Assembly: GCA_038245295.1 (NCBI GenBank)
Contig: JBBRSP010000011.1
Location: forward strand, 97,812 to 161,811
Reading direction: 5' to 3'
Source: Candidatus Binatia bacterium
GTDB lineage: Bacteria; Desulfobacterota; Binatia; HRBIN30
Length of the DNA: 64,000 nt
The notes below the pieces were generated by a model, which saw nothing but the letters and a program-made list of their open reading frames with translations, did not search any database and was not told the DNA's origin. The position numbers and the translations under genes are program-made. Of this stretch, positions 5,297 through 28,508 are shown piece after piece (position 1 is the stretch's first letter; the number at the start of each line of letters is the position of its first letter).

Positions 5297-7390
5297 ATGT
5301 CGTGGAGTCCGTTCATCTTCGCAGCTCTCATTGCCGGTGCCTTGGGCTATCTGGCGAAAACTCTTTACGGCCGAGTGCAGGTTCTGCTCAAGGTCCAAAA
5401 GGTTGATCGCTTCGATAACATTCCGGAGCGCATCAAAGCAGTCCTCGTTTACGCTTTTGGTCAGAAAAAGTTCGTCCAACAACAGCCCCGGCCGAATACG
5501 CGCATCAGCGAGCAGGCTGCCGGGTGGCTGCATTTCTTCGTATTTTGGGGTTTTGTCATCCTCGGCGAACAAGTGATTACCATGTTCGGTCGCGGTTTCT
5601 TCCCCAACTTCCAGGTTCCGCTCATGGGGGCGAGCCAACTGGGTGGGCCCTATTTCTTCTTGAAAGACATGATGGAGGTCGTGGTCTTCGTCTGTGTCAT
5701 CATCCTGCTGTATCGCTGGTTGGTCACTCACCCGGCCCGTCTCTACGGATACAAGCCCGCTGAGAATCGTCTCGCCGGCCAATCGCACGGCGAAGCCTAT
5801 CTGATCCTGTGCTTAATCGGCTGCATCATGATCGGCGGGAAGCTCTACGATGCCGGGCGTATGGTCTTCTTGGCGAACGATCCGGAAGTTCAGGCCGAGA
5901 TGTGGTGGCAGCCGGTCGGCCACTTCGTGGTTGCGCCAATGCTCAACGCCATCGGCGGCGCCAGCTTCGCGAAACTGGCCAGCGACTTCGGCTGGTGGCT
6001 GCATAACTGCGTCATTCTCGCTTTCGTCAACCTCCTTCCATTATCGAAGCACTTCCACATCATCACGTCACTGCCGAACGTGTTCTTCGTTAAGACCGAG
6101 CCGAAGGGCGCCCTCAGCAAGCAGGATCTCGAGAACGCGACGACGTTCGGCACGTCCCACATCAATCAATTCACCTGGAAGCAGGTTCTCGACATGTACT
6201 CATGCACCGAGTGCGGTCGCTGTTCGTCGCATTGTCCGGCAACGCATAGTGGCAAGGAGCTCGCACCACGTCAGCTGCTCCTCAATCTGCGCGACTACCT
6301 TTACGAACACGAGAAAGAGGCTGCCAACGTTCCGATCCCAGCGGCCGGGCCGGGCGAAGCCGCCGCCGAGGCGGTGAACGTCGGCGAAAACATTGTCGGC
6401 GAGCGGCTCATCCATGATGAGGTCTTGTGGGCCTGCACGAGCTGCCGAGCTTGCGAAGAAGCCTGTCCGGTCATGATCGAGTACGTCGACAAGATCGTCG
6501 ATATGCGCCGCCACCTGGTTCAGGAGGAAGCACGTTTTCCTGCCGAGCTGACCCGTACCTTCAAGAACATGGAGACGCAGAGCAATCCATGGGGTGTCGA
6601 TGCGATGACCCGCGACGCATGGGCCGAAGGGCTTGATATTCCCATGTTCGCGGACAAGCCGGACGCCGAATTTCTCTACTACGTCGGCTGCGCCGGCGCG
6701 TTTGATGACCGCGCCAAAAAGACCACGCAGGCCGTTGCCAAGGTTCTGAAGAAGGCGGGTGTCGACTTTGCCATTCTGGGCAAAGAAGAGATGTGCAACG
6801 GCGAAACGGCCCGTCGCATCGGCAATGAGTACTTGTTCCAGACCATGGCGACGATGTGTGTTGAGACGATCAACAACTACAACGTCAAAAAGATCATCAC
6901 CAACTGTCCACACTGCTTCAACACTTTGAAGAATGAGTTCCCGCAGTTTGGCGGTAACTACGAAGTTCAACACGCGGTAGACTTCGTGCGCCAGCTGATC
7001 GGTGAGGGGAAGGTGGAGTTCAACGTCAACGGCGCCCAGACGGTGACCTACCACGACTCGTGTTACCTCGGTCGGTACAATGAGGTTTACGAAACACCGC
7101 GCGAGATTCTCGGACTCATCCCGGGGGTGACTCTGAAGGAACCCGAGCGCAACAAGAAATTCGGGATGTGTTGCGGCGCCGGCGGCGGCCGCATGTGGAT
7201 GGAGGAAGAACCTGACAAGCGCGTCAACATCAAGCGCGTTGAACAACTGCTCGAAACCGAGCCGAATACGGTCGCGGTGGCTTGCCCGTTCTGCATGACG
7301 ATGATCGACGACGGCATCAAGGCCAAGGGAATGGAAGAGAAAGTCCAAGCCCTCGACGTCATGGAGATGGTGGCGAGCAACATGAAGTAG
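5297..7390 (+). CDS. Membrane Fe-S oxidoreductase (TM/heme-b-type domain + 2x[4Fe-4S] + 2 CCG domains), EtfD/FadF-like ETF:quinone oxidoreductase
   Basis: N-terminal TM helices with His (WLHFF, WLHNC); CTECGRCSSHCP and CTSCRACEEACP; CCGAGGG; TNCPHC; ACPFC; adjacent to etfBA. Confidence 0.88.
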   Translation: MSWSPFIFAALIAGALGYLAKTLYGRVQVLLKVQKVDRFDNIPERIKAVLVYAFGQKKFVQQQPRPNTRISEQAAGWLHFFVFWGFVILGEQVITMFGRGFFPNFQVPLMGASQLGGPYFFLKDMMEVVVFVCVIILLYRWLVTHPARLYGYKPAENRLAGQSHGEAYLILCLIGCIMIGGKLYDAGRMVFLANDPEVQAEMWWQPVGHFVVAPMLNAIGGASFAKLASDFGWWLHNCVILAFVNLLPLSKHFHIITSLPNVFFVKTEPKGALSKQDLENATTFGTSHINQFTWKQVLDMYSCTECGRCSSHCPATHSGKELAPRQLLLNLRDYLYEHEKEAANVPIPAAGPGEAAAEAVNVGENIVGERLIHDEVLWACTSCRACEEACPVMIEYVDKIVDMRRHLVQEEARFPAELTRTFKNMETQSNPWGVDAMTRDAWAEGLDIPMFADKPDAEFLYYVGCAGAFDDRAKKTTQAVAKVLKKAGVDFAILGKEEMCNGETARRIGNEYLFQTMATMCVETINNYNVKKIITNCPHCFNTLKNEFPQFGGNYEVQHAVDFVRQLIGEGKVEFNVNGAQTVTYHDSCYLGRYNEVYETPREILGLIPGVTLKEPERNKKFGMCCGAGGGRMWMEEEPDKRVNIKRVEQLLETEPNTVAVACPFCMTMIDDGIKAKGMEEKVQALDVMEMVASNMK

Positions 7391-7422
7391 CACCCGGCGC
7401 TGCGCGAGCGCTACTGAAACGG

Positions 7423-7454
7423 AAAAAGGGCAGCCGGTGACGGCTGCCCTTTTT
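7423..7454. terminator. Bidirectional rho-independent terminator
   Basis: AAAAAGGGCAGCCG-GTGA-CGGCTGCCCTTTTT, a perfect inverted repeat with A/T tracts between convergent genes. Confidence 0.92.
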
Positions 7455-7477
7455 CATTTGGAGTGTTCGACGCGTTG

Positions 7478-8443
7478 CTACTTGAGCTTCTTCACTTCTT
7501 CAGTCATTTCCGGCACGGCCTTGAACAAGTCGGCGACCAGGCCGTAATCGGCAACCTGGAAGATCGGCGCCTCGGCATCTTTGTTGATGGCGACGATGAT
7601 CTTCGAGTCCTTCATGCCGGCCAAGTGCTGGATCGCACCTGAAATGCCGACCGCAATATAAAGCGCTGGTGCTACGACCTTACCGGTCTGACCAACCTGC
7701 AGGTCGTTGGGAACGAAACCCGCGTCGACAGCCGCGCGGCTGGCGCCCATGGCGGCGCCGAGCGCATCGACCAGAGGCTCGAGAACCGTCTTGAAGTTCT
7801 CGCCCGACTTCAGGGCCCGACCACCGGAGACGATGATGCTGGCCTCGGTGAGGACCGGACGATCCGATTTGACTTCGTTGAAGCTAACGAACTTGGTCTT
7901 CTTGGAGTCGGCGTCGATACCCGCAGCGACCTTCTCGACCGCACCCTTGCTACCGCCCTTGGCCGCTGGATCGAAGGCCGTCGTGCGGACGCTTACCACC
8001 TTCTGAGCGCTGGTAATGCTCACTGTCGCAATGGCATTGCCGGCATACATCGGCCGCTCCAGGCTGCCGTCGGCATTGAATGCCATGACATCACTCGCCA
8101 TGCCGGCGCCGAGAAGGGCGGCGACGCGCGGGAGAAGATCCTTGCCCACTGCCGTGGCGGCAGCGACGAGTGTCGCGGCTCCCTTTTCGTTCACCACCTG
8201 AGCCAACGCGGCCGCGTGTGCGTCGGCCGTGTAATTGGCGAGGGCGGCATCGTCGACGACGTAGACCTTGACGCCGTATTCGGCGACTTCGTTCGCGACG
8301 GCATCGACGCCACTACCGAGGACGACGGCCTGGCACTCGCCGCCACTCTTCGCCGCTGCGTCTTTGCCCGCCGCGATCGCTACCTGCGTTGTCTTGAGAA
8401 CCTTCTGAGCGTGATGCTCTGCAAAAACGAGTACGTTTCCCAT
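7478..8443 (-). CDS. etfA: Electron transfer flavoprotein alpha subunit
   Basis: [46 protein letters not shown]. Confidence 0.97.
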
Positions 8444-8455
8444 GGTTCAACTCCA

Positions 8456-9250
8456 CTAGATGGCTTTGGCTTCGTTGTGCAGAACCTGCACGAGCTCTTG
8501 CACCGACTCGACCGTGCGGCCCGCTTGACGCTTGGGCGGCGGGCTCAATTTGAGAATTTTGGTCTGCGGGGCGATATCAACCCCGAGGCTGTCTGCGGCG
8601 ATTTCCTTCAGTTCCTTCTTACGCGCCTTCATGATGCCGGGGAGCGAAGCGTAGCGCGGTGTATTCAAGCGGAGATCCACCGTGATGACCGCCGGCAGGG
8701 GGCACTCGAGGGTCTCCAGGCCGCCATCGACCTCGCGCATAACTTTGGCCGTGCCGCCGGAGAGTTGAATGCCCGGTTGGCTGTTCTTTTCGGCTTCCGA
8801 GTCGAGGCTTTCCGCCTTCGAGGCGAACGTCGCCTGCGGCCAACCAAGGAGAGCTGCCAGCATCTGGCCAGTCTGATTGCTGTCGTCGTCGATCGCCTGT
8901 TTGCCCATCAAGACTAGGTCAGCCTTTTCATCGGTGGCCAGCTTGTGGAAGATTCGCGCCACCCCGAGTGAGTCGAGATCGGCCGGAGCGAGCACCAGGA
9001 TTGCCCGGTCCGCACCCATCGCCAACCCAGTACGCAACTGCTCAGAGGCGACTTTGTCGCCGACGCTGACCAGTACAACCTCCGCACCGCCACCTTTTTC
9101 CTTGATGCGCAACGCTTCTTCGACGGCGATTTCGTCGAATGGGTTGACGACGTACTTCAGGTTGGTCGTATCGATGCCCGTGCCGTCAGGTTTCACCTTG
9201 ATCGCGGCATTGGGGTCCGGCACACGCTTCACCGTGACGAGAATCTTCAC
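8456..9250 (-). CDS. etfB: Electron transfer flavoprotein beta subunit
   Basis: KILVTVKRVPD, NPFDEIAVEEA, LAMGADRA, GKQAIDDD, PRYASLPGIMKA; GTG 9250 with GGAGG RBS. Confidence 0.97.
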   Translation of the reverse strand: MKILVTVKRVPDPNAAIKVKPDGTGIDTTNLKYVVNPFDEIAVEEALRIKEKGGGAEVVLVSVGDKVASEQLRTGLAMGADRAILVLAPADLDSLGVARIFHKLATDEKADLVLMGKQAIDDDSNQTGQMLAALLGWPQATFASKAESLDSEAEKNSQPGIQLSGGTAKVMREVDGGLETLECPLPAVITVDLRLNTPRYASLPGIMKARKKELKEIAADSLGVDIAPQTKILKLSPPPKRQAGRTVESVQELVQVLHNEAKAI

Positions 9251-9412
9251 AGGAGCCTCCTCTTGAATTTGGGGGAATCTCAGGACGTCGGCGTAGCTAA
9301 CATAGGGGTATTGACCACTCAAGATAGCGCCGAACCAGAAGCTCTTATCGATCCATTAAGCGGTGTACGAAGCCTGTCCCCCGAGGTGGGACAACACACG
9401 GCGTAGCCGGTT

Positions 9413-19599: not shown

Positions 19600-20298
19600 T
19601 CAGTTTGGCTGATCGCCACTCTGGTGAGGGCTGTGGGACGGCAGGGCCTGCGCCGACGTCCACGACACCGCTGGAGTCTGCGGCGTGGCGCAGGCATTTC
19701 CAACCGGGGTACAGGCACTCCAAGCCTCGGGCGGCAGGGGATCATCCCCGTATCGACTCCGCTGGCATAGCCCACTGGCGCGACGATAGAGATTCTCGAT
19801 CGCGACGGCCTCGACCTCGTGTTCCCCAGGGTTGATGCCACGGCAGTCTTGCACGGCGTGGACGATCTCGTGCAGCAGCGAAGCAGTGGGGTCGCGGTAG
19901 ACTGGTTCTGTGACGTCGCCGTCGCACCCTTCTTCTAGTTCCGTACGCAGAGAAGGGTTCCAGGAAATAACGCCGGTTTGGCGGTCGAATACATTTCGAC
20001 CAATTTCCGAATCGGCACAAATTTCAAAACGCCGCCCAGGGCACTGATCCAACTCTTCCAACAAGGCGGCAATCTGCAGGGGTTGTCCGCAAGCATCCGC
20101 GGTAGTTTGCAGCGTCTGCAGGGCAGGCGTGACCACTTCGACGGCCTGTGCCTCGACGATCAACTCCGCGGCGGCGGATCGGTGCAAGACCGCCACGAGG
20201 GTGGCACACAGCAGCCGGCGCAGTAGGCGACTCCGGCAGCTGGCTAGCCACTCCCCTGGGACAGTCCGCGACGGGGCGGGTTCGGTCTCGTATTTCAT
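19600..20298 (-). CDS. Secreted HEXXH zinc metallopeptidase-like protein (M91-like)
   Basis: Signal-like segment ending SAAA; WNP...LLHEIVHA...E...ENLYRRASGLCQRSRY; start uncertain (20379 or 20298). Confidence 0.6.
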   Translation of the reverse strand: MKYETEPAPSRTVPGEWLASCRSRLLRRLLCATLVAVLHRSAAAELIVEAQAVEVVTPALQTLQTTADACGQPLQIAALLEELDQCPGRRFEICADSEIGRNVFDRQTGVISWNPSLRTELEEGCDGDVTEPVYRDPTASLLHEIVHAVQDCRGINPGEHEVEAVAIENLYRRASGLCQRSRYGDDPLPPEAWSACTPVGNACATPQTPAVSWTSAQALPSHSPHQSGDQPN

Positions 20299-20509
20299 CT
20301 TCAAGATCGGTTCGCACCTGTGTCCGCCGGTTGTCGTGCGGACGGAATTTTCCTTCACATACTCGTCTTCGACAGGCAACCGAAAAAGGCGAAAAGGCGC
20401 TTCCAGGAATTCCGACGCCCTTCGCGTTGACGCTTCGAAGCAGCTGTCGCCGAGGCGATCGGAGATTCAGCGTTGAGTCAGGCGGATTCGCACATTAGGG
20501 TGTCACACC

Positions 20510-21223
20510 ATGAAACGCCGCCTTCTAACCGCCGCTGCCGCGTGCACCGTTGTCGTGTTTGCGACAACGGTCCCGGCATGGGCTCACGGCAACATGCCGC
20601 CCTACATCGCCTTCTGGGGGCCCTTCAGTGAAGCGGCAACTCGCTGCCAGCGTATGCTTGGGTTGGCGGCGCAGCGCTGCGTCGGCGAGGTGTTGGCTCT
20701 GCCACGCACCTGTCCGGATTGTGATGCGGCTGAGCTGAGCGCGGCACGGGAAACAGCCATCATGGCCGAGGAGGAGCCAATCCGCTCTGCCTGCGTGGAG
20801 GCCAGTAGCATCGAGTTGGGCTTTCGCGGGGTCGATGAGGCGCTATCGGATCTGCGCCGTACCTGTACCAATGAGCCTGTCACAGTCGGACAACTCGTCC
20901 ACGCCGCCGCCGATGTTGCTGCGAGCGCGGATTGTAGCGAACGTACCAAAGCTCTGGCGGAGATGTTGCTCGAAGACGCAATTCATGTGAAGCGCGCGAC
21001 GCTGGACGTCATCGCTACGCGCTCACTGCAACCGAGCCAGCGCTTGGCGCGCATCAACCGTGCCGCTAACCGTCTCGCCAAAATGCGCACCCGACTCGAT
21101 GGGTTGTTGGCCGAAGTTTGCGTGAGCCCGCCACCGGCGAGCTTCCTGGTTCTGATCGAGTTGCGCGCCGACTGTGTTGTCGACGGCGCCTACTACCAGT
21201 CCGCCTACCAGTGCCCGCGATGA
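20510..21223 (+). CDS. Secreted Cys-rich hypothetical protein; predicted mature N-terminus His-Gly
   Basis: Signal peptide MKRR...PAWA then HGNMPP; about 10 Cys in the mature part. Confidence 0.7.
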   Translation: MKRRLLTAAAACTVVVFATTVPAWAHGNMPPYIAFWGPFSEAATRCQRMLGLAAQRCVGEVLALPRTCPDCDAAELSAARETAIMAEEEPIRSACVEASSIELGFRGVDEALSDLRRTCTNEPVTVGQLVHAAADVAASADCSERTKALAEMLLEDAIHVKRATLDVIATRSLQPSQRLARINRAANRLAKMRTRLDGLLAEVCVSPPPASFLVLIELRADCVVDGAYYQSAYQCPR

Positions 21224-21318: not shown

Positions 21319-22731
21319 TCAGTTGCCGTGACGAATGGTCGTGGTCTGCACCGCGTCCTTCGTCACGCAGGTGATGGCTTCGTTCTGACTATCCGTTGGG
21401 AAATAGAAGCCGAACCAATTGCAGTGCTCGTTGGTGTCCGTGAAGGGCCCGAATTTGAAGTCGTACGGCGTCGTATTCTCCCACTGACATTCCCACTCGA
21501 GACCCTGGCCGGCATCGAACAGCGGCATGTTGTCGACTGGATAAACCAGGAAAGGCGGATCACTGTATCCCTGGTAGTCGTACAGCTTCTCGCCGCGCTC
21601 GCCATTGTCGAAGCGGTAGGTGGTGAAGTGACGACCGCGGAAGTGGTAGTGGCCGGTTTGGGCCATCAACGTGATGTCTTTGGGGAAGGTGCAGCCGGCG
21701 GCCTTGGTTGTCACCGAGTGAGCTGGGACGAACACATCCTTGTCTTGCCCGAAGATTGCCCCGGCGTTGGCAACGATGGTTCCTGGCGTCGCGGCGTGGA
21801 TGTTCATCACGACTTTTCCCTCACCGCGGGTTTCCAACGAGCCGATGTTGACGAAATGGGTTTGCACCAGCAGCTGCTCCCCGGCCCTGAAGTGGTACCC
21901 GATGCCGCTGGGGAGTTGCCAGTCGGTAGCGCGGAGTTGGCTTGCCGCCACCAACTCCCACTTGTCGAAATCGACTGCCGTATTGCAGGTTTCGAAGCCA
22001 TCCGGGATGTCGAGTGTCGAGTCGTAGGGGCGGTACAGGTGAATGTGGTGGCTGCCACCACTGACGGCGATCTCGAAACGAGTGGCGTCTAAATCGACAT
22101 CGGATGGCAACTTCAGGTAGTGGCAGCTCGTCTCTTCTTTGCCATCCGGGATTGCCGCAGCCGTGACCTTGAGCTGCACACCGCGCAGCGGCGGCGGCAG
22201 GTTGATGTCGTTGCTGCCGGCATCGCCAAGGCCAAGCGGTTTACCATCATCGCCGGCTACTACACCGTCGTGCGGAGCTCCGGCGGCAATCCAGGCGCGG
22301 ATCACGGCGACCGTGTGTGTCGGCAATAAGGCCGCCCCGTAGGGCATCGAGGTTCCTTCGCCGGGGTCGAGAGTGTTCGCCAATTTCGATAGCAGCAGAC
22401 TCTTGCTCGGGTCGCCGGGCATGACCCTCATGTAACCGTGGGCGGCGGCAAGCGGGTTGGAGGGAGTCACTCGCATCAGGGCATCCCAGGAATCGCCATT
22501 GTCGAGCACAAGCGCGCCAGCCTGACCGACATGACTATGACAAGAATCGGAGGAACAGCTTACGTTGAATACTTGTGTCTGAATTCGCGAGAACGTCGAG
22601 GCGGAAGCATGCGCGTCGGAGTTACTGACGCTGCCGCCGCAGCCGGCGGCAACAACGAGGACCATCAGTCCACACGCCCAAACGCGTTGGTGGAGGGGGT
22701 TTCGCGCATGCCGAAATGTCTTCGAGCTCAT
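21319..22731 (-). CDS. Lipoprotein: cytochrome-c-like domain fused to a copper type II ascorbate-dependent monooxygenase (PHM/DBH)-like domain
   Basis: Lipobox AAGC; CSSDSCH...MPYG...IRAWIAAGA; SHHIHLY, QTHF, GHYH, NEHC. Confidence 0.75.
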   Translation of the reverse strand: MSSKTFRHARNPLHQRVWACGLMVLVVAAGCGGSVSNSDAHASASTFSRIQTQVFNVSCSSDSCHSHVGQAGALVLDNGDSWDALMRVTPSNPLAAAHGYMRVMPGDPSKSLLLSKLANTLDPGEGTSMPYGAALLPTHTVAVIRAWIAAGAPHDGVVAGDDGKPLGLGDAGSNDINLPPPLRGVQLKVTAAAIPDGKEETSCHYLKLPSDVDLDATRFEIAVSGGSHHIHLYRPYDSTLDIPDGFETCNTAVDFDKWELVAASQLRATDWQLPSGIGYHFRAGEQLLVQTHFVNIGSLETRGEGKVVMNIHAATPGTIVANAGAIFGQDKDVFVPAHSVTTKAAGCTFPKDITLMAQTGHYHFRGRHFTTYRFDNGERGEKLYDYQGYSDPPFLVYPVDNMPLFDAGQGLEWECQWENTTPYDFKFGPFTDTNEHCNWFGFYFPTDSQNEAITCVTKDAVQTTTIRHGN

Positions 22732-22828
22732 TGCGCCGCAACTCTAAAGAGCGGCCACACTAGGGTCAACCGCAAAGTTTGAAGTAGACAGCTGATTCCG
22801 GGCACGCGAATGGGCGATTTATTGCGGA

Positions 22829-24166: not shown

Positions 24167-25411
24167 TCAGCCAGCTTTCGCTTGCTTGCCAAACAAGATT
24201 CCGGCGACGCGGCGGATCTGGATCTCGTCGGAGCCTTCGGTGATGCGGTAGCGGCGATGATGGCGATAGATATGTTCGAACGGTTTATGGCGCGTGTAGC
24301 CGATGCCACCGTGCACCTGAATGGCCTGGTCGGCGGCATTCACCGCGAGACGGTTCGCCCGGTAGTTGCACATCGAGACCTTGTCGCTGACTTCCATGCG
24401 ATGCTTCTGATCCATGAGCCAGGCCGTCTTGTAAACCATCGTGCGCACCATTTCACACTCGGTGTGGAGCTCCGCGAGGGGAAACTGGATGGCTTGATTG
24501 GTCCACAGGGGTTTGCCGAAGACGATGCGCTGCTTGGCGTAGGCGGCGCTCTCATGGACACAGTATTGCGCCACCCCGACGCTGGATGCGGCCTGGCGAA
24601 TGCGATTCTCGTGGACGAACGATTGTGCCAACTGGAGGCCGCGGCCTTCCTGGCCAAAGATCGCCGAGTTCGGCACGCGCACATTCTTCAGTGTCACTTC
24701 CGGGTGATCACTCGGCATGTTGAACGTCCACCACATGAAGTCGACGCTGAAGCCAAGGGAAGTCACCGGCACAATGAAGCACGTTATGCCCTCGGCTTCG
24801 CCCGACTTACCGCCGCTGCGCGCGAAGACCAGGTCGTAGTTCGCGGAGTGCAATCCAGAATTGAAGCGCTTTTGGCCATTGATCACCCAGTCGTTGCCGT
24901 CGCGTACCGCCGTGGTCTCGAGCCACGTCGCATCGCTGCCATGGTTTGGTTCCGTGAGGCCAAAGCCGAGCCGGTATGTTCCGGTGATCACGCCCGGCAA
25001 AAATTCCTTCTTCTGCTCCGCGGAGCCGAACTCCATGAGCATGTGGACGATTGGAAAGTTGCCGACGATCGACGCCTCATTCTGCAAGTCGTTGTGTAAG
25101 CCAAGGCCTTTGGCGGCAAGATGTTCGCGTACCACCGCCATCGCCAGATTGCCGGCGGCCTGTCCGCCGACTTCCTTTGGCAAGGCGTACCGGAGATGCC
25201 CGGCTGCATCGGCGCGGCGTCGCATCTCGCCGAGTAGCTCCTCCCACTCGTGCCGCGGTTGGCCGTCGTTCTCCCAGTCGGTGCGGGCGTGTTCGCGCCG
25301 ATGGTCGAAGAATTGTGGGTGCGCGTCCTCGAGTGGCTTGATCTCGCGTGCGATGAACTCGTCGAGCTCGGTCAGCTTGGCTGTGATCTCGGTCGGGATC
25401 GAAAAGTCCAT
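24167..25411 (-). CDS. Acyl-CoA dehydrogenase
   Basis: FGLTEPNHGSDA, INGQKRF, AIQVHGGIGY, YRITEGSDEIQ. Confidence 0.93.
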   Translation of the reverse strand: MDFSIPTEITAKLTELDEFIAREIKPLEDAHPQFFDHRREHARTDWENDGQPRHEWEELLGEMRRRADAAGHLRYALPKEVGGQAAGNLAMAVVREHLAAKGLGLHNDLQNEASIVGNFPIVHMLMEFGSAEQKKEFLPGVITGTYRLGFGLTEPNHGSDATWLETTAVRDGNDWVINGQKRFNSGLHSANYDLVFARSGGKSGEAEGITCFIVPVTSLGFSVDFMWWTFNMPSDHPEVTLKNVRVPNSAIFGQEGRGLQLAQSFVHENRIRQAASSVGVAQYCVHESAAYAKQRIVFGKPLWTNQAIQFPLAELHTECEMVRTMVYKTAWLMDQKHRMEVSDKVSMCNYRANRLAVNAADQAIQVHGGIGYTRHKPFEHIYRHHRRYRITEGSDEIQIRRVAGILFGKQAKAG

Positions 25412-26175: not shown

Positions 26176-27297
26176 TCAGGCAGGCTCGGCGGCGATCATG
26201 GCGCCGAGCCTTGCCAGTTGTGGTGTTGCTGCTCCGAGGGTGAACTCGATTTGTTTGAGCCAGAGGAAGTAGCGGTGAATCGGGTAATCGATGTCGATGC
26301 TGATACCGCCGTGGATGTGCAGGCCGGCGTGGCCGATGCGACTGCCGCCTTCGCAGGCCCAGTACTTGGCCGTCGCCACCTCCTTGGGGGACGGTAGCTC
26401 GTCGGCGAGGCGTGAAACCGCTTGGAGCATTGCCACGTTGACTGCCTCGTTGTCGATGAACGAATCGGCCATGCGCTGGCCAACCGCTTGGAACATGGCG
26501 ATCGGCTTGCCGAACTGTTTGCGGTTGCTGGCGTACTCCGCCGTTAATCGCAACGCTTCCTGGCAGGCACCGGAAGCGATGGCGCAGTAGGCGACGGTCA
26601 CGCGGTCGACGATCCAATTGAGGACCGTTGCGGCCTTGTCGAGCGGCCCGAGCAGGGCATCGCGGCCGACAACCACCTCTTTCAAGTCGAGGTGAAACTG
26701 CCCTTCCCAGTTCATCGGGTCCTGCTGCGTCATGGAAACACCGGCAGCTTTCGGGTCGATGAGGAAGACACCGATTTCGCCGGCGTCGGTGCGCGCCGCC
26801 ACGAGCAGGGCCACCGCCCGATGGGCCATCGGGACACACGTCTTCGTTCCGTTGATCTTCCACCCTTCGCCGCTGGGTGTCGCTGTGGTCGCGGGATGGC
26901 GTTCGTCGGTGTTGAGCTCGCTGAGAGCGGCGCCGAGCAAGGTGCGTCCTTCGACGACGCCAGGGAGAAACTTTGACTGCTGCGCTTCCGACCCGAACCG
27001 GGCGATCGGCATGGCACCGCCCACAATGGTTGGAACCAGCGGCAGCAGCGGCAGCTTCTTACCCTGTTGCTCGAGGATGAGACACATCTCCAGGAATCCG
27101 CCGCCGCTGCCGTTGGCGCTTTCGGGCAAGGCGGCGCCGAGAAGGCCCGCCTTGGCTACTTCCGCCCACAAGGCGGTGTCGTAACGATCGGCGCTGCGCT
27201 CGACGGTCTTGAGGCGCTCCAGGGCGCTGTGGTCGCCAAAAATCTGCGCCGCCAGGTTCGACAGCGCTTGCTGGTCTTCGGTGATTGAAAAATCCAT
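26176..27297 (-). CDS. Acyl-CoA dehydrogenase, FadE27/ChsE5-like subunit
   Basis: MDFSITEDQQAL start; RKQFGKPIAMFQAVGQRMAD; HIHGGISIDIDYPIHRYFLWLKQIEFTLG resembles the mycobacterial FadE27 C-terminus. Confidence 0.85.
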   Translation of the reverse strand: MDFSITEDQQALSNLAAQIFGDHSALERLKTVERSADRYDTALWAEVAKAGLLGAALPESANGSGGGFLEMCLILEQQGKKLPLLPLVPTIVGGAMPIARFGSEAQQSKFLPGVVEGRTLLGAALSELNTDERHPATTATPSGEGWKINGTKTCVPMAHRAVALLVAARTDAGEIGVFLIDPKAAGVSMTQQDPMNWEGQFHLDLKEVVVGRDALLGPLDKAATVLNWIVDRVTVAYCAIASGACQEALRLTAEYASNRKQFGKPIAMFQAVGQRMADSFIDNEAVNVAMLQAVSRLADELPSPKEVATAKYWACEGGSRIGHAGLHIHGGISIDIDYPIHRYFLWLKQIEFTLGAATPQLARLGAMIAAEPA

Positions 27298-27320
27298 TAC
27301 GTGTTCTCCGGGTCCTTGGC

Positions 27321-28508
27321 TCAGCTGAAGGCGCGCGGGGCGACCGGCATTCCGAGCCCGAACAGGCAGATCAGGTCGCGCTGCAGCTCGTTGGTGCCGC
27401 CGCCGAAGGTGAGGATGTGGATCGAGCGCATGAAGAAGCCGACCCGACCGTCGGCCACCGCATCCGGGGAGCCGCCGCGAATCGGACCCGCGGCGCCCAT
27501 CACTTCCAGCATCAGACGGCATGCTTCGAGGTAGAACTCGGTGCCGAAGACTTTGATCCCCGAGGCATGTGCGGGGCTAATCGGCAGCCCTTGTTCCGCG
27601 CCCCAGGCAATCTTGAAGTTCATCAGGCGCAGAGCATCGAGGCGGGCGTAGATGCGCGCCAGGTTCAGCTGCACCCACTCTTGATCGATGACACGTTTGC
27701 CGTTGGCAAGGCGGGTTGCCTTCGCCCAGCGGACGGTATCTTCGTAAAGGCCTTCGATCATGCCCGAGCTGCACAGGGTGACACGTTCGTGGTTGAGCTG
27801 ATTGGTGATCAGCTTCCAGCCGCCGTTGAGTTTGCCGACCAGATTCGACGCGGGCACGCGCACGTCGTCGTAGAAGGTCTGGTTGGTATTCATGTCGCCC
27901 ATGTTTTTGATCGGCACGCAGCGAAAGCCGGGCGTGTTGGTGGGCACGATGATCATCGAGATGCCCTTGTGTTTCACGGCCTCCGGATCGGTGCGCACCG
28001 CCAGCCAGATGTAATCGGCATCGGTCGCCAGAGAGGTGAAGATCTTCTGACCGTTGATCACCCACTCATCGCCATCGCGCACCGCTTTGCACTGCAGCGA
28101 CGCGAGATCCGTGCCGGAGGCGGGCTCGGTGTAGCCGATGGCGAAGTGCAACTCGCCCTTGAGAATCTTGGGCAAGAAGAAGTTCTTCTGTTCGTCGGTA
28201 CCGAACTGCATGATCGTCGGCGCCACCGAGTTGACCGTCAGCATCGGCACGGGCGCGCCGGCGCGCATCGACTCGTCGAAGAAGATGAACTGCTCGATCG
28301 GCGTCATGCCGCGGCCGCCATATTGCTTGGGCCAACCGATGCCGAGCCAGCCGTCGCGGCCCATTTGCAAGACAACCTCGCGGACGATGGGTCCGACACC
28401 TTCACTTCGCCGCACTTCGGCGATGATCTCCGGCGTCAGGAGCTTCTTGTAGTAAGCGCGCAGCTCCTGGCGCAGCGCTTCGTGTTCTTCACTGTAGGCG
28501 AGTCTCAT
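27321..28508 (-). CDS. Acyl-CoA dehydrogenase, FadE26/ChsE4-like subunit
   Basis: MRLAYSEEHEALRQELRAY, QMGRDGWLGIGWPK, APVPMLTVNSVAPTIM, NQLNHERV, EWVQLNLAR, ILTFGGGTNELQRD, all FadE26-like; ATG 28508. Confidence 0.88.
   Translation of the reverse strand: MRLAYSEEHEALRQELRAYYKKLLTPEIIAEVRRSEGVGPIVREVVLQMGRDGWLGIGWPKQYGGRGMTPIEQFIFFDESMRAGAPVPMLTVNSVAPTIMQFGTDEQKNFFLPKILKGELHFAIGYTEPASGTDLASLQCKAVRDGDEWVINGQKIFTSLATDADYIWLAVRTDPEAVKHKGISMIIVPTNTPGFRCVPIKNMGDMNTNQTFYDDVRVPASNLVGKLNGGWKLITNQLNHERVTLCSSGMIEGLYEDTVRWAKATRLANGKRVIDQEWVQLNLARIYARLDALRLMNFKIAWGAEQGLPISPAHASGIKVFGTEFYLEACRLMLEVMGAAGPIRGGSPDAVADGRVGFFMRSIHILTFGGGTNELQRDLICLFGLGMPVAPRAFS

Follow-up and report, generated by a model that had tools for sequence, protein, structure and literature searches.

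A histidine at the CuM methionine position in a PHM/DBH-fold protein of Candidatus Binatia with a fused cytochrome-c-like domain

The 64-kb stretch of contig JBBRSP010000011.1 of a Candidatus Binatia bacterium (64,000 nucleotides, hereafter the window) carries on its minus strand, at 21319..22731, a gene for a predicted 470-aa lipoprotein, in which a signal peptide with a lipobox is followed by a cytochrome-c-like domain and by a dicopper core of the PHM/DBH fold. Close to the C-terminus, the motif N434-E435-H436-C437 (21421..21432, minus strand) places a histidine, H436, at the position of the CuM ligand Met314 of PHM, and C437 at the position of the disulfide cysteine Cys315. The fold and the register of the copper ligands are those of PHM and DBH, the ligands are conserved, proteins with histidine segregate phylogenetically from those with methionine, and the core is found fused to a cytochrome-like module or encoded next to it. 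We consider it fairly probable that this protein is a periplasmic, O2-activating dicopper enzyme that is fed with electrons by a cytochrome c and possesses a native His3 CuM site.

The assignment of the catalytic core was obtained from profile and structure comparisons. PF03712 (Cu2_monoox_C) matches residues 346-457 with 30.5 bits (cut-off 23, E 2.9e-7), whereas PF01082 has no match in the query at E <= 1 and reaches 24.3 bits in the relative P0135, below its cut-off of 30 (Pfam); despite these PF01082 scores, the CuH domain aligns to PHM both by profile and by Foldseek over about 300 columns. A single-sequence phmmer search against the PDB gave no PHM match, so that a family profile was required. 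The profile built from 29 aligned homologues (A1) matches PHM over the whole catalytic core (E 4.4e-5, profile positions 188-448) and DBH with E 6e-5. In this alignment GGSHHIH of the family corresponds to DTVHHML of PHM (H107/H108), QTHF to QVHY (H172), GHYHFRG to VHTHHLG (H242/H244) and TDTNEHCN to TSSDEMCN (M314), and the same ligand register was reproduced by hhalign. The AlphaFold2 (AF2) model has a mean predicted local distance difference test score (pLDDT) of 76.7 and shows a beta-sandwich in the CuH domain. For this model Foldseek gives only PHM and DBH among the 31 best PDB matches (E 6e-17 to 3e-13; best value 6e-17 for PHM and 7e-16 for DBH), with target-normalised template modelling (TM) scores of 0.60-0.71 to PHM. 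Weaker matches to double-jelly-roll capsid proteins were also obtained, because these proteins share the fold class (PMC8812541), and among the Foldseek PDB matches there was no solved structure of any bacterial relative. The alignment of the histidine with the CuM methionine of PHM, on which an earlier note on this DNA had built its case, is thus upheld by the profile and by hhalign, within a fold that Foldseek identifies as that of PHM and DBH.

On the profile alignment, the AF2 model and Foldseek, the N-terminal jelly-roll, or CuH domain, comprises residues 183-315 (21787..22185, minus strand). It contains H228-H229-I230-H231 (22039..22050, minus strand), whose H228 and H229 are the counterparts of the ligands H107 and H108 at CuH of PHM, and H292 (21856..21858, minus strand), which corresponds to H172; two residues before the latter stands Q290, the equivalent of PHM Q170. 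This His3 set is present as in the PHM/DBH/TBM family, and copper binding is predicted from it. The C-terminal jelly-roll, or CuM domain, extends over residues 320-468 (21328..21774, minus strand) according to the PF03712 match, the profile, the AF2 model and Foldseek. Its H361-Y362-H363 (21643..21651, minus strand) corresponds to the CuM ligands H242 and H244, is invariant and is kept in His-type and Met-type clades; thus the His-x-His pair of CuM is present, but the position of the family's Met thioether is taken by H436. In the 29 aligned homologues H436 and the other five ligand histidines are invariant, and so is E435. Of the residues that bind the substrate in PHM, only N316 is kept (N438), while R240 is replaced by T359 and Y318 by F440; Q170 is kept as well (Q290). 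Since threonine stands at the R240 position, the carboxylate anchor of PHM is absent and a C-terminal glycine substrate is unlikely. The protein is therefore homologous to PHM, DBH and TBM, but it fails one defining feature of them, the His2Met CuM site, and lacks the PHM substrate anchor.

Two further histidines of the CuH domain are invariant in the family: H204, which follows a disulfide cysteine (C203-H204, 22120..22125, minus strand), and H231 (22039..22041, minus strand), two residues past the HH pair of CuH. The joint pattern CH...HHxH occurs in several His-type subclades (P0131, P0141, P0209, P0215 and others), and elsewhere CY...HHxN is found. Judged from this pattern, H204 and H231 could serve near CuH as an additional metal site or as a relay for electrons.

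The reading frame itself leaves little room for artefact. The 470-aa open reading frame (ORF) is intact and occurs in one copy only in the window, and its translation puts NEHC close to the C-terminus, within FGPFTDTNEHCNWFGFYF, as the earlier note had read it; codon by codon, N434 lies at 21430-21432, E435 at 21427-21429, H436 at 21424-21426 and C437 at 21421-21423 (all minus strand). Read support for the H436 codon, which that note had proposed to check, was found in independently assembled contigs from two runs of a sediment metagenome, X1 and X2, which cover the codon at depths of 11.1 and 4.1, respectively, with zero differences. The signal peptide ends in the lipobox V-A-A-G-C31 (MSSKTFRHARNPLHQRVWACGLMVLVVAAGC, 22639..22731, minus strand), which was read directly from the sequence and not by a predictor; C31 is almost invariant in the family alignment. 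From the signal peptide and the lipobox AAGC31, the protein is expected to be exported and lipid-anchored. In the database, the gene call on this contig (P0001, 396 aa) is 100% identical but has its start about 74 residues inside the full ORF. Such a short start would drop the signal peptide and the CX4CH motif, and homologues show that the long form is conserved. Just upstream of the start codon lies a sigma-70-like hexamer pair (22769..22741), which is a consensus match only.

The histidine is a constant feature of the relatives. NEHC(N) is present in 120/120 of the closest database homologues (58-100% identity), mostly metagenome-assembled genomes (MAGs) of Candidatus Binatia or 'Deltaproteobacteria', and 27 GTDB genome loci were found, most of them labelled Candidatus Binatia (13) or with older names such as 'Deltaproteobacteria'. 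A search seeded with cytochrome-less His-type sequences added 115 new proteins from MAGs of Polyangiales, Myxococcales, Chlorobi, Kapabacteria and Sericytochromatia; all of them carry His (115/115) and none the haem motif, and they are named 'hypothetical protein', save for 'monooxygenase' and a Pfam-domain label. In the metagenome scan, for which the closer alignment A4 was used, the residue is His in 77/77 loci with the position present. Together these counts rule out the sequencing error or private mutation that the earlier note had named as a possible refutation. That H436 results from a sequencing or assembly error, a pseudogene or a mutation of this organism alone has practically no probability left, as the ORF is intact, the two runs show no differences over the codon and His is universal in the relatives; no support for it was found, the later start of P0001 being a difference in start-codon annotation only.

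A wider HMMER search of 1.84 billion representatives gave 10,746 matches at E <= 1e-3, 3,258 at E <= 1e-10 and 265 at E <= 1e-30, among which the query's own family forms a single 50% cluster. When the 150 best representatives were aligned to the family hidden Markov model, 82 had a complete core, the five His ligands being the selection criterion, and the sixth ligand position of these was His in 50 and Met in 32; the preceding Glu is kept in nearly all of them (one Asp). In a PHM-rooted neighbour-joining tree of the catalytic cores, all His-type sequences form one clade nested within a Met-type grade, and after removal of the ligand column (Poisson correction) at most two of the 83 taxa were misplaced in 83 of 100 bootstrap replicates. 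The clades are discriminated, His versus Met, at positions 290 (Q/N), 360 (G/S), 436 (H/M) and 438 (N/I); at 290 and 438 the residue of the His clade is the one found in PHM (Q170 and N316, respectively). The aligned complete cores of the His clade contain no conserved Met that could serve instead. By these sequence comparisons, the histidine is an ancient trait, fixed throughout a large bacterial clade that is nested among Met-type relatives from bacteria and has members in Binatia, Myxococcota, Chlorobi/Kapabacteria, Sericytochromatia and Armatimonadota. The suggestion that EHC and EMC might segregate phylogenetically and define a distinct bacterial subfamily is borne out by the tree, the bootstraps and the 50 versus 32 representatives.

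Within the His-type clade, one subclade (P0209, P0215, P0220, P0222, P0232, P0239, P0265) has long C-terminal extensions. Its two scanned members, P0209 and P0265, show a weak, sub-threshold match to a lamin-tail domain, and P0265, with 1796 aa, matches a lactonase-type beta-propeller as well; these proteins look like surface-displayed multidomain versions. On the long-read MAG contig CAVWTK010000004.1 (L030, 5962..7356) the gene copy is split over four frames into a cytochrome part and three catalytic pieces, which reflects either a pseudogene or long-read indel errors.

The N-terminal, helical domain of the protein (residues 44-155, 22267..22602, minus strand) was assigned as cytochrome-c-like from a weak TIGR03806 match, from its relatives and from adjacency. 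It contains the putative haem c motif C59-S-S-D-S-C64-H65 (22537..22557, minus strand), a CX4CH motif of which C59, C64 and H65 are invariant, and M129-P130 (22342..22347, minus strand), which is invariant in the family and whose Met is the candidate distal axial haem ligand. CX4CH is found in 117/120 close family members. In the superfamily, the 89 aligned domains have CX4CH in 69 cases and CXXCH in 18, and every aligned cytochrome-like domain keeps the Met of M129-P130 (CCHM pattern). Haem attachment at CX4CH is precedented in multihaem cytochromes. The match to the C-terminal haem domain of the TIGR03806 dihaem cytochromes is weak (E 2.5e-5) and far below its cut-off. Stand-alone relatives of the domain match, mostly weakly, PSCyt1, Cytochrome_CBB3 and the haem-bearing N-terminus of fatty-acid cis/trans isomerase (CTI); three of them exceed the PSCyt1 cut-off, and P0154 also exceeds those of Cytochrome_CBB3 and Cytochrom_C. 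Taken together, the motifs suggest a cytochrome c domain, and the export that haem c attachment needs would be provided by the signal peptide with its sequence-read lipobox AAGC. The 'heme c fusion' of the earlier note thus stands insofar as a fused domain with an invariant CX4CH...MP is present, but the motif is not CXXCH and the fold search returned no match. The same domain family includes tandem proteins of about 300-350 aa with two such domains, for example P0155 and P0165, and is also found within large multidomain proteins, such as P0138 with CHRD domains.

The same note had supposed that the histidine might co-occur with the haem c fusion, and here the counts run the other way. Among complete cores, His-type proteins are mostly unfused (40 unfused, 10 fused) and Met-type proteins mostly fused (25 fused, 7 unfused), in a sample that is biased, as the query profile contains both domains. 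Where the fusion is missing, the module is often encoded nearby: in 16/38 unfused His-type metagenome loci, counting those in which each flank extends over at least 1.5 kb, the same CX4CH...MP domain is present as a separate gene on the same strand. Most of these genes lie upstream, with 86-304 nt between their end and the catalytic domain, and some lie about 1 kb downstream; in L037 the cytochrome-like gene is directly upstream and ends 32 nt before the catalytic gene, and in L039 it follows about 1 kb downstream. The 19 distinct stand-alone copies have CX4CH in 18 cases and CX5CH in one, and MP in all 19. Because the module is fused in some lineages and adjacent in others, a functional link between module and catalytic core can be assumed, for which fusion and adjacency provide good genomic evidence. 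Judged by gene content, the whole bacterial superfamily, His-type and Met-type alike, has the cytochrome-like module as its partner, and the link is frequent but not universal. Electron delivery to CuH would be the most economical reading of it.

According to the mechanism that we propose, H436 would be the native third ligand position of CuM and would complete a His3 site (H361, H363, H436) beside the His3 CuH site (H228, H229, H292), and the exported protein would bind two copper ions and one haem c. Electrons would enter from the periplasmic or respiratory pool via the CX4CH...Met cytochrome-c-like domain, which would take the role that ascorbate and cytochrome b561 have in animals. They would then pass from the haem to CuH and further to CuM, where O2 would be activated and a substrate other than a C-terminal glycine oxidised.

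Several observations weigh against this proposal. The AF2 model has a pLDDT below 50 at residues 428-431 and of about 71 at residues 431-440, i.e. a moderate confidence around the ligand, and the exact split of the His clade was recovered in 25/100 bootstrap replicates. The N-terminal domain of the query has by itself no Pfam match, PSCyt1 included; the AF2 model of the isolated domain (pLDDT 80, low at the haem loop) has no PDB match at E < 1 in Foldseek, and the motif spacing is CX4CH and not the usual CXXCH. Cytochrome-less paralogues in Binatia (L024-L029) have no adjacent cytochrome gene. The neighbourhood offers no clue to a substrate and is poorly conserved, the window and the loci of P0006 and P0091 being different. 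Moreover, engineered Met-to-His variants lose activity, as the earlier note had stated for PHM: PHM M314H retains at most about 5% (PMC12164859), and TBM M471H is inactive and shows in EXAFS no sign of His471 coordination (PMC2988203). Since these mutants are near-inactive, monooxygenase chemistry at a His3 CuM is not guaranteed, and the protein may have an evolved His3 site with compensating second-shell changes or may carry out chemistry of the oxidase/reductase type instead.

The EXAFS result on TBM M471H also speaks for the possibility that H436 stays off the metal, which would leave CuM as a two-His or non-functional site in a protein for copper binding, storage or electron transfer without catalysis. 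This appears improbable to us. The moderate model confidence near the ligand speaks for it, as does one relative, L037, whose neighbours, a CsoR-like repressor and a P-type ATPase, hint at copper homeostasis; but the histidine is invariant in more than 300 sequences of several phyla and flanked by the invariant E435, and both copper sites, with their six histidines, are conserved along with the electron-donor module. Furthermore, two Cu are bound by PHM M314H, whose Cu(I)-CO complex shows 3N(His) coordination (nu(CO) 2075 cm-1; PMC12164859), so that a histidine at the Met314 position is able to ligate CuM.

A more serious competitor, which we nevertheless hold to be rather unlikely, keeps the same architecture but assigns to it another chemistry, that of an oxidase or reductase acting on O2, H2O2, nitrite or another small oxyanion instead of a C-H hydroxylase. 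Nitrite or the other oxyanion would then be reduced at a type-2-like His3 copper, as happens at the T2 site (His3) of copper nitrite reductase. The loss of hydroxylase activity in the Met-to-His mutants of PHM and TBM, the second-shell differences from the Met clade (290 Q/N, 360 G/S, 438 N/I), the missing carboxylate anchor R240 of PHM and a partner of the cytochrome type, as is typical of respiratory and periplasmic redox enzymes, would all be in line with such a role, and the PDB titles 3mib and 3mlk indicate that PHM CuM can bind nitrite. However, all other hallmarks of the monooxygenase core are kept, including the equivalents of Q170 and N316, and the Met-type relatives carry the same cytochrome module, so that the donor does not discriminate between the chemistries. 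In addition, no denitrification or peroxide-stress genes were found nearby in the window or in the neighbourhoods of P0006 and P0091.

The proposed O2-activating enzyme can be compared with several known proteins. With PHM (rat, PDB 1PHM/1OPM/1SDW) it shares the core of two jelly-rolls, the CuH HH...H and CuM HxH ligands in register, the E-x-C-N motif that encloses the third CuM ligand, the residues equivalent to Q170 and N316, and the disulfide cysteine close by. It differs from it by Met314 to His, R240 to Thr and Y318 to Phe, at about 18-20% identity, and by being bacterial and lipoprotein-anchored, with a cytochrome-c-like domain, the putative donor, in place of the soluble ascorbate dependence. 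DBH (human, PDB 4ZEL) and TBM have the same catalytic core. The extra N-terminal DOMON domain of DBH (PMC12164859) shows that accessory modules occur in the family; here, however, the accessory domain is a CX4CH cytochrome-c-like one and not DOMON, and the CuM ligand position is occupied by His and not by Met. The His3 ligand set at CuM is that of engineered PHM M314H, but while the latter carries a single exchange in a scaffold adapted to Met, the histidine of the bacterial proteins has evolved, is invariant and is accompanied by clade-specific second-shell residues. The bacterial Met-type relatives (for example P0146, P0156 and P0197; 'hypothetical protein') have the same domain order, a CX4CH cytochrome-like domain followed by the catalytic core, and the five His ligands but differ by E-M at the CuM position and by N at 290, S at 360 and I at 438.

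PHM has been described as the eukaryotic branch of its clan (PMC8812541). Neither the protein nor its relatives are covered by a curated NCBIfam family, and 20 representatives, when looked up by cluster, were either nameless or called 'hypothetical protein'. In the mostly open-access literature that we searched, no description was found of bacterial His-type PHM relatives, of their partnership with a cytochrome or of copper monooxygenases in Binatia. It is conceivable, though we would put it forward only tentatively, that the His-type proteins represent a distinct and widespread class of cytochrome-c-driven dicopper proteins, with a chemistry at His3 CuM beyond the reach of Met-type PHM and DBH; the candidates would be oxidase- or peroxygenase-type turnover and the reduction of small oxyanions.

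It is a long-standing question of copper biochemistry what makes a weak thioether ligand necessary at the copper that activates O2 in PHM, DBH and TBM. On the tentative reading of a distinct class, the switch from Met to His would be a functional shift that took place once in bacteria, and the clade a natural experiment on this need in the eukaryotic enzymes. In any case, the natural clade provides an evolved scaffold, with His at the CuM position, that can be compared with the near-dead Met-to-His mutants. The PHM fold, usually called eukaryotic (PMC8812541), is also abundant in soil and sediment bacteria, where a dedicated CX4CH cytochrome-like module would stand in for ascorbate. As the members are annotated as 'hypothetical protein' or in generic terms, there is room for the discovery of function.

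In the window, the genes upstream on the same strand encode an acetyl-CoA hydrolase/transferase and acyl-CoA dehydrogenases, and downstream there are two unannotated ORFs and a two-component system. Clustering of the ORFs of 31 loci revealed one partial recurrent neighbour only, in 9 loci. In the window, the convergent downstream ORF at 20510..21223 (plus strand) encodes a secreted, Cys-containing protein of 237 aa. Its cluster is also found beside the gene in eight other Binatia loci (L003, L006, L009, L011, L013, L015, L018, L030), where it is divergent and upstream, and it is the sole recurrent neighbour of the fused family; the ORF of the window and the divergent upstream neighbour in L003 are 27% identical across 203 aa (E 3.5e-9). 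For the L003 copy a weak match to DUF4215 was obtained, and no confident family was found in Pfam for the recurrent partner genes. The product of 20510..21223 may be a functional partner or a substrate, and its membership in the system is uncertain. An unannotated ORF at 19600..20379 (minus strand) has 259 aa and contains an HExxH-like stretch, LLHEIVHAVQD, with no match in Pfam or NCBIfam; it could encode a small metalloprotease-like protein or be no real gene.

Acyl-CoA dehydrogenase genes lie within a few kb of the gene family in 8 loci, the window included (24167..25411 and 26176..27522, minus strand; L031, 8012..10344; also L005, L024, L026 and L029). This recurrence could be due to chance, Binatia perhaps being simply rich in such genes. 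In unfused loci of the Myxococcota type, the gene order is cytochrome-like gene, PHM-like gene and lipoprotein gene, the last of which directly follows the catalytic gene on the same strand and encodes a protein of about 320 aa with no Pfam family (L037, 5970..6947; L038, 6096..6917; L040, 3074..4093; L041, 4816..5781). In L039, L104 and L108 its place is taken by an outer-membrane-barrel-like protein of about 312 aa. The genes for the CsoR-like metal repressor and the P-type ATPase follow the unfused His-type locus L037 at 7049..9252, and in L038 (3483..4841) a DsbD-like thiol-disulfide transporter fused to thioredoxin precedes such a locus; these neighbours hint at copper handling or at the maintenance of periplasmic redox state. 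Finally, 15 loci, fused and unfused, encode FG-GAP/UnbV_ASPIC (CRTAC1-like) proteins beside or ahead of the PHM-like gene (L034, 2286..4694 and 6237..8420; L003, 5508..6728; and 13 more).

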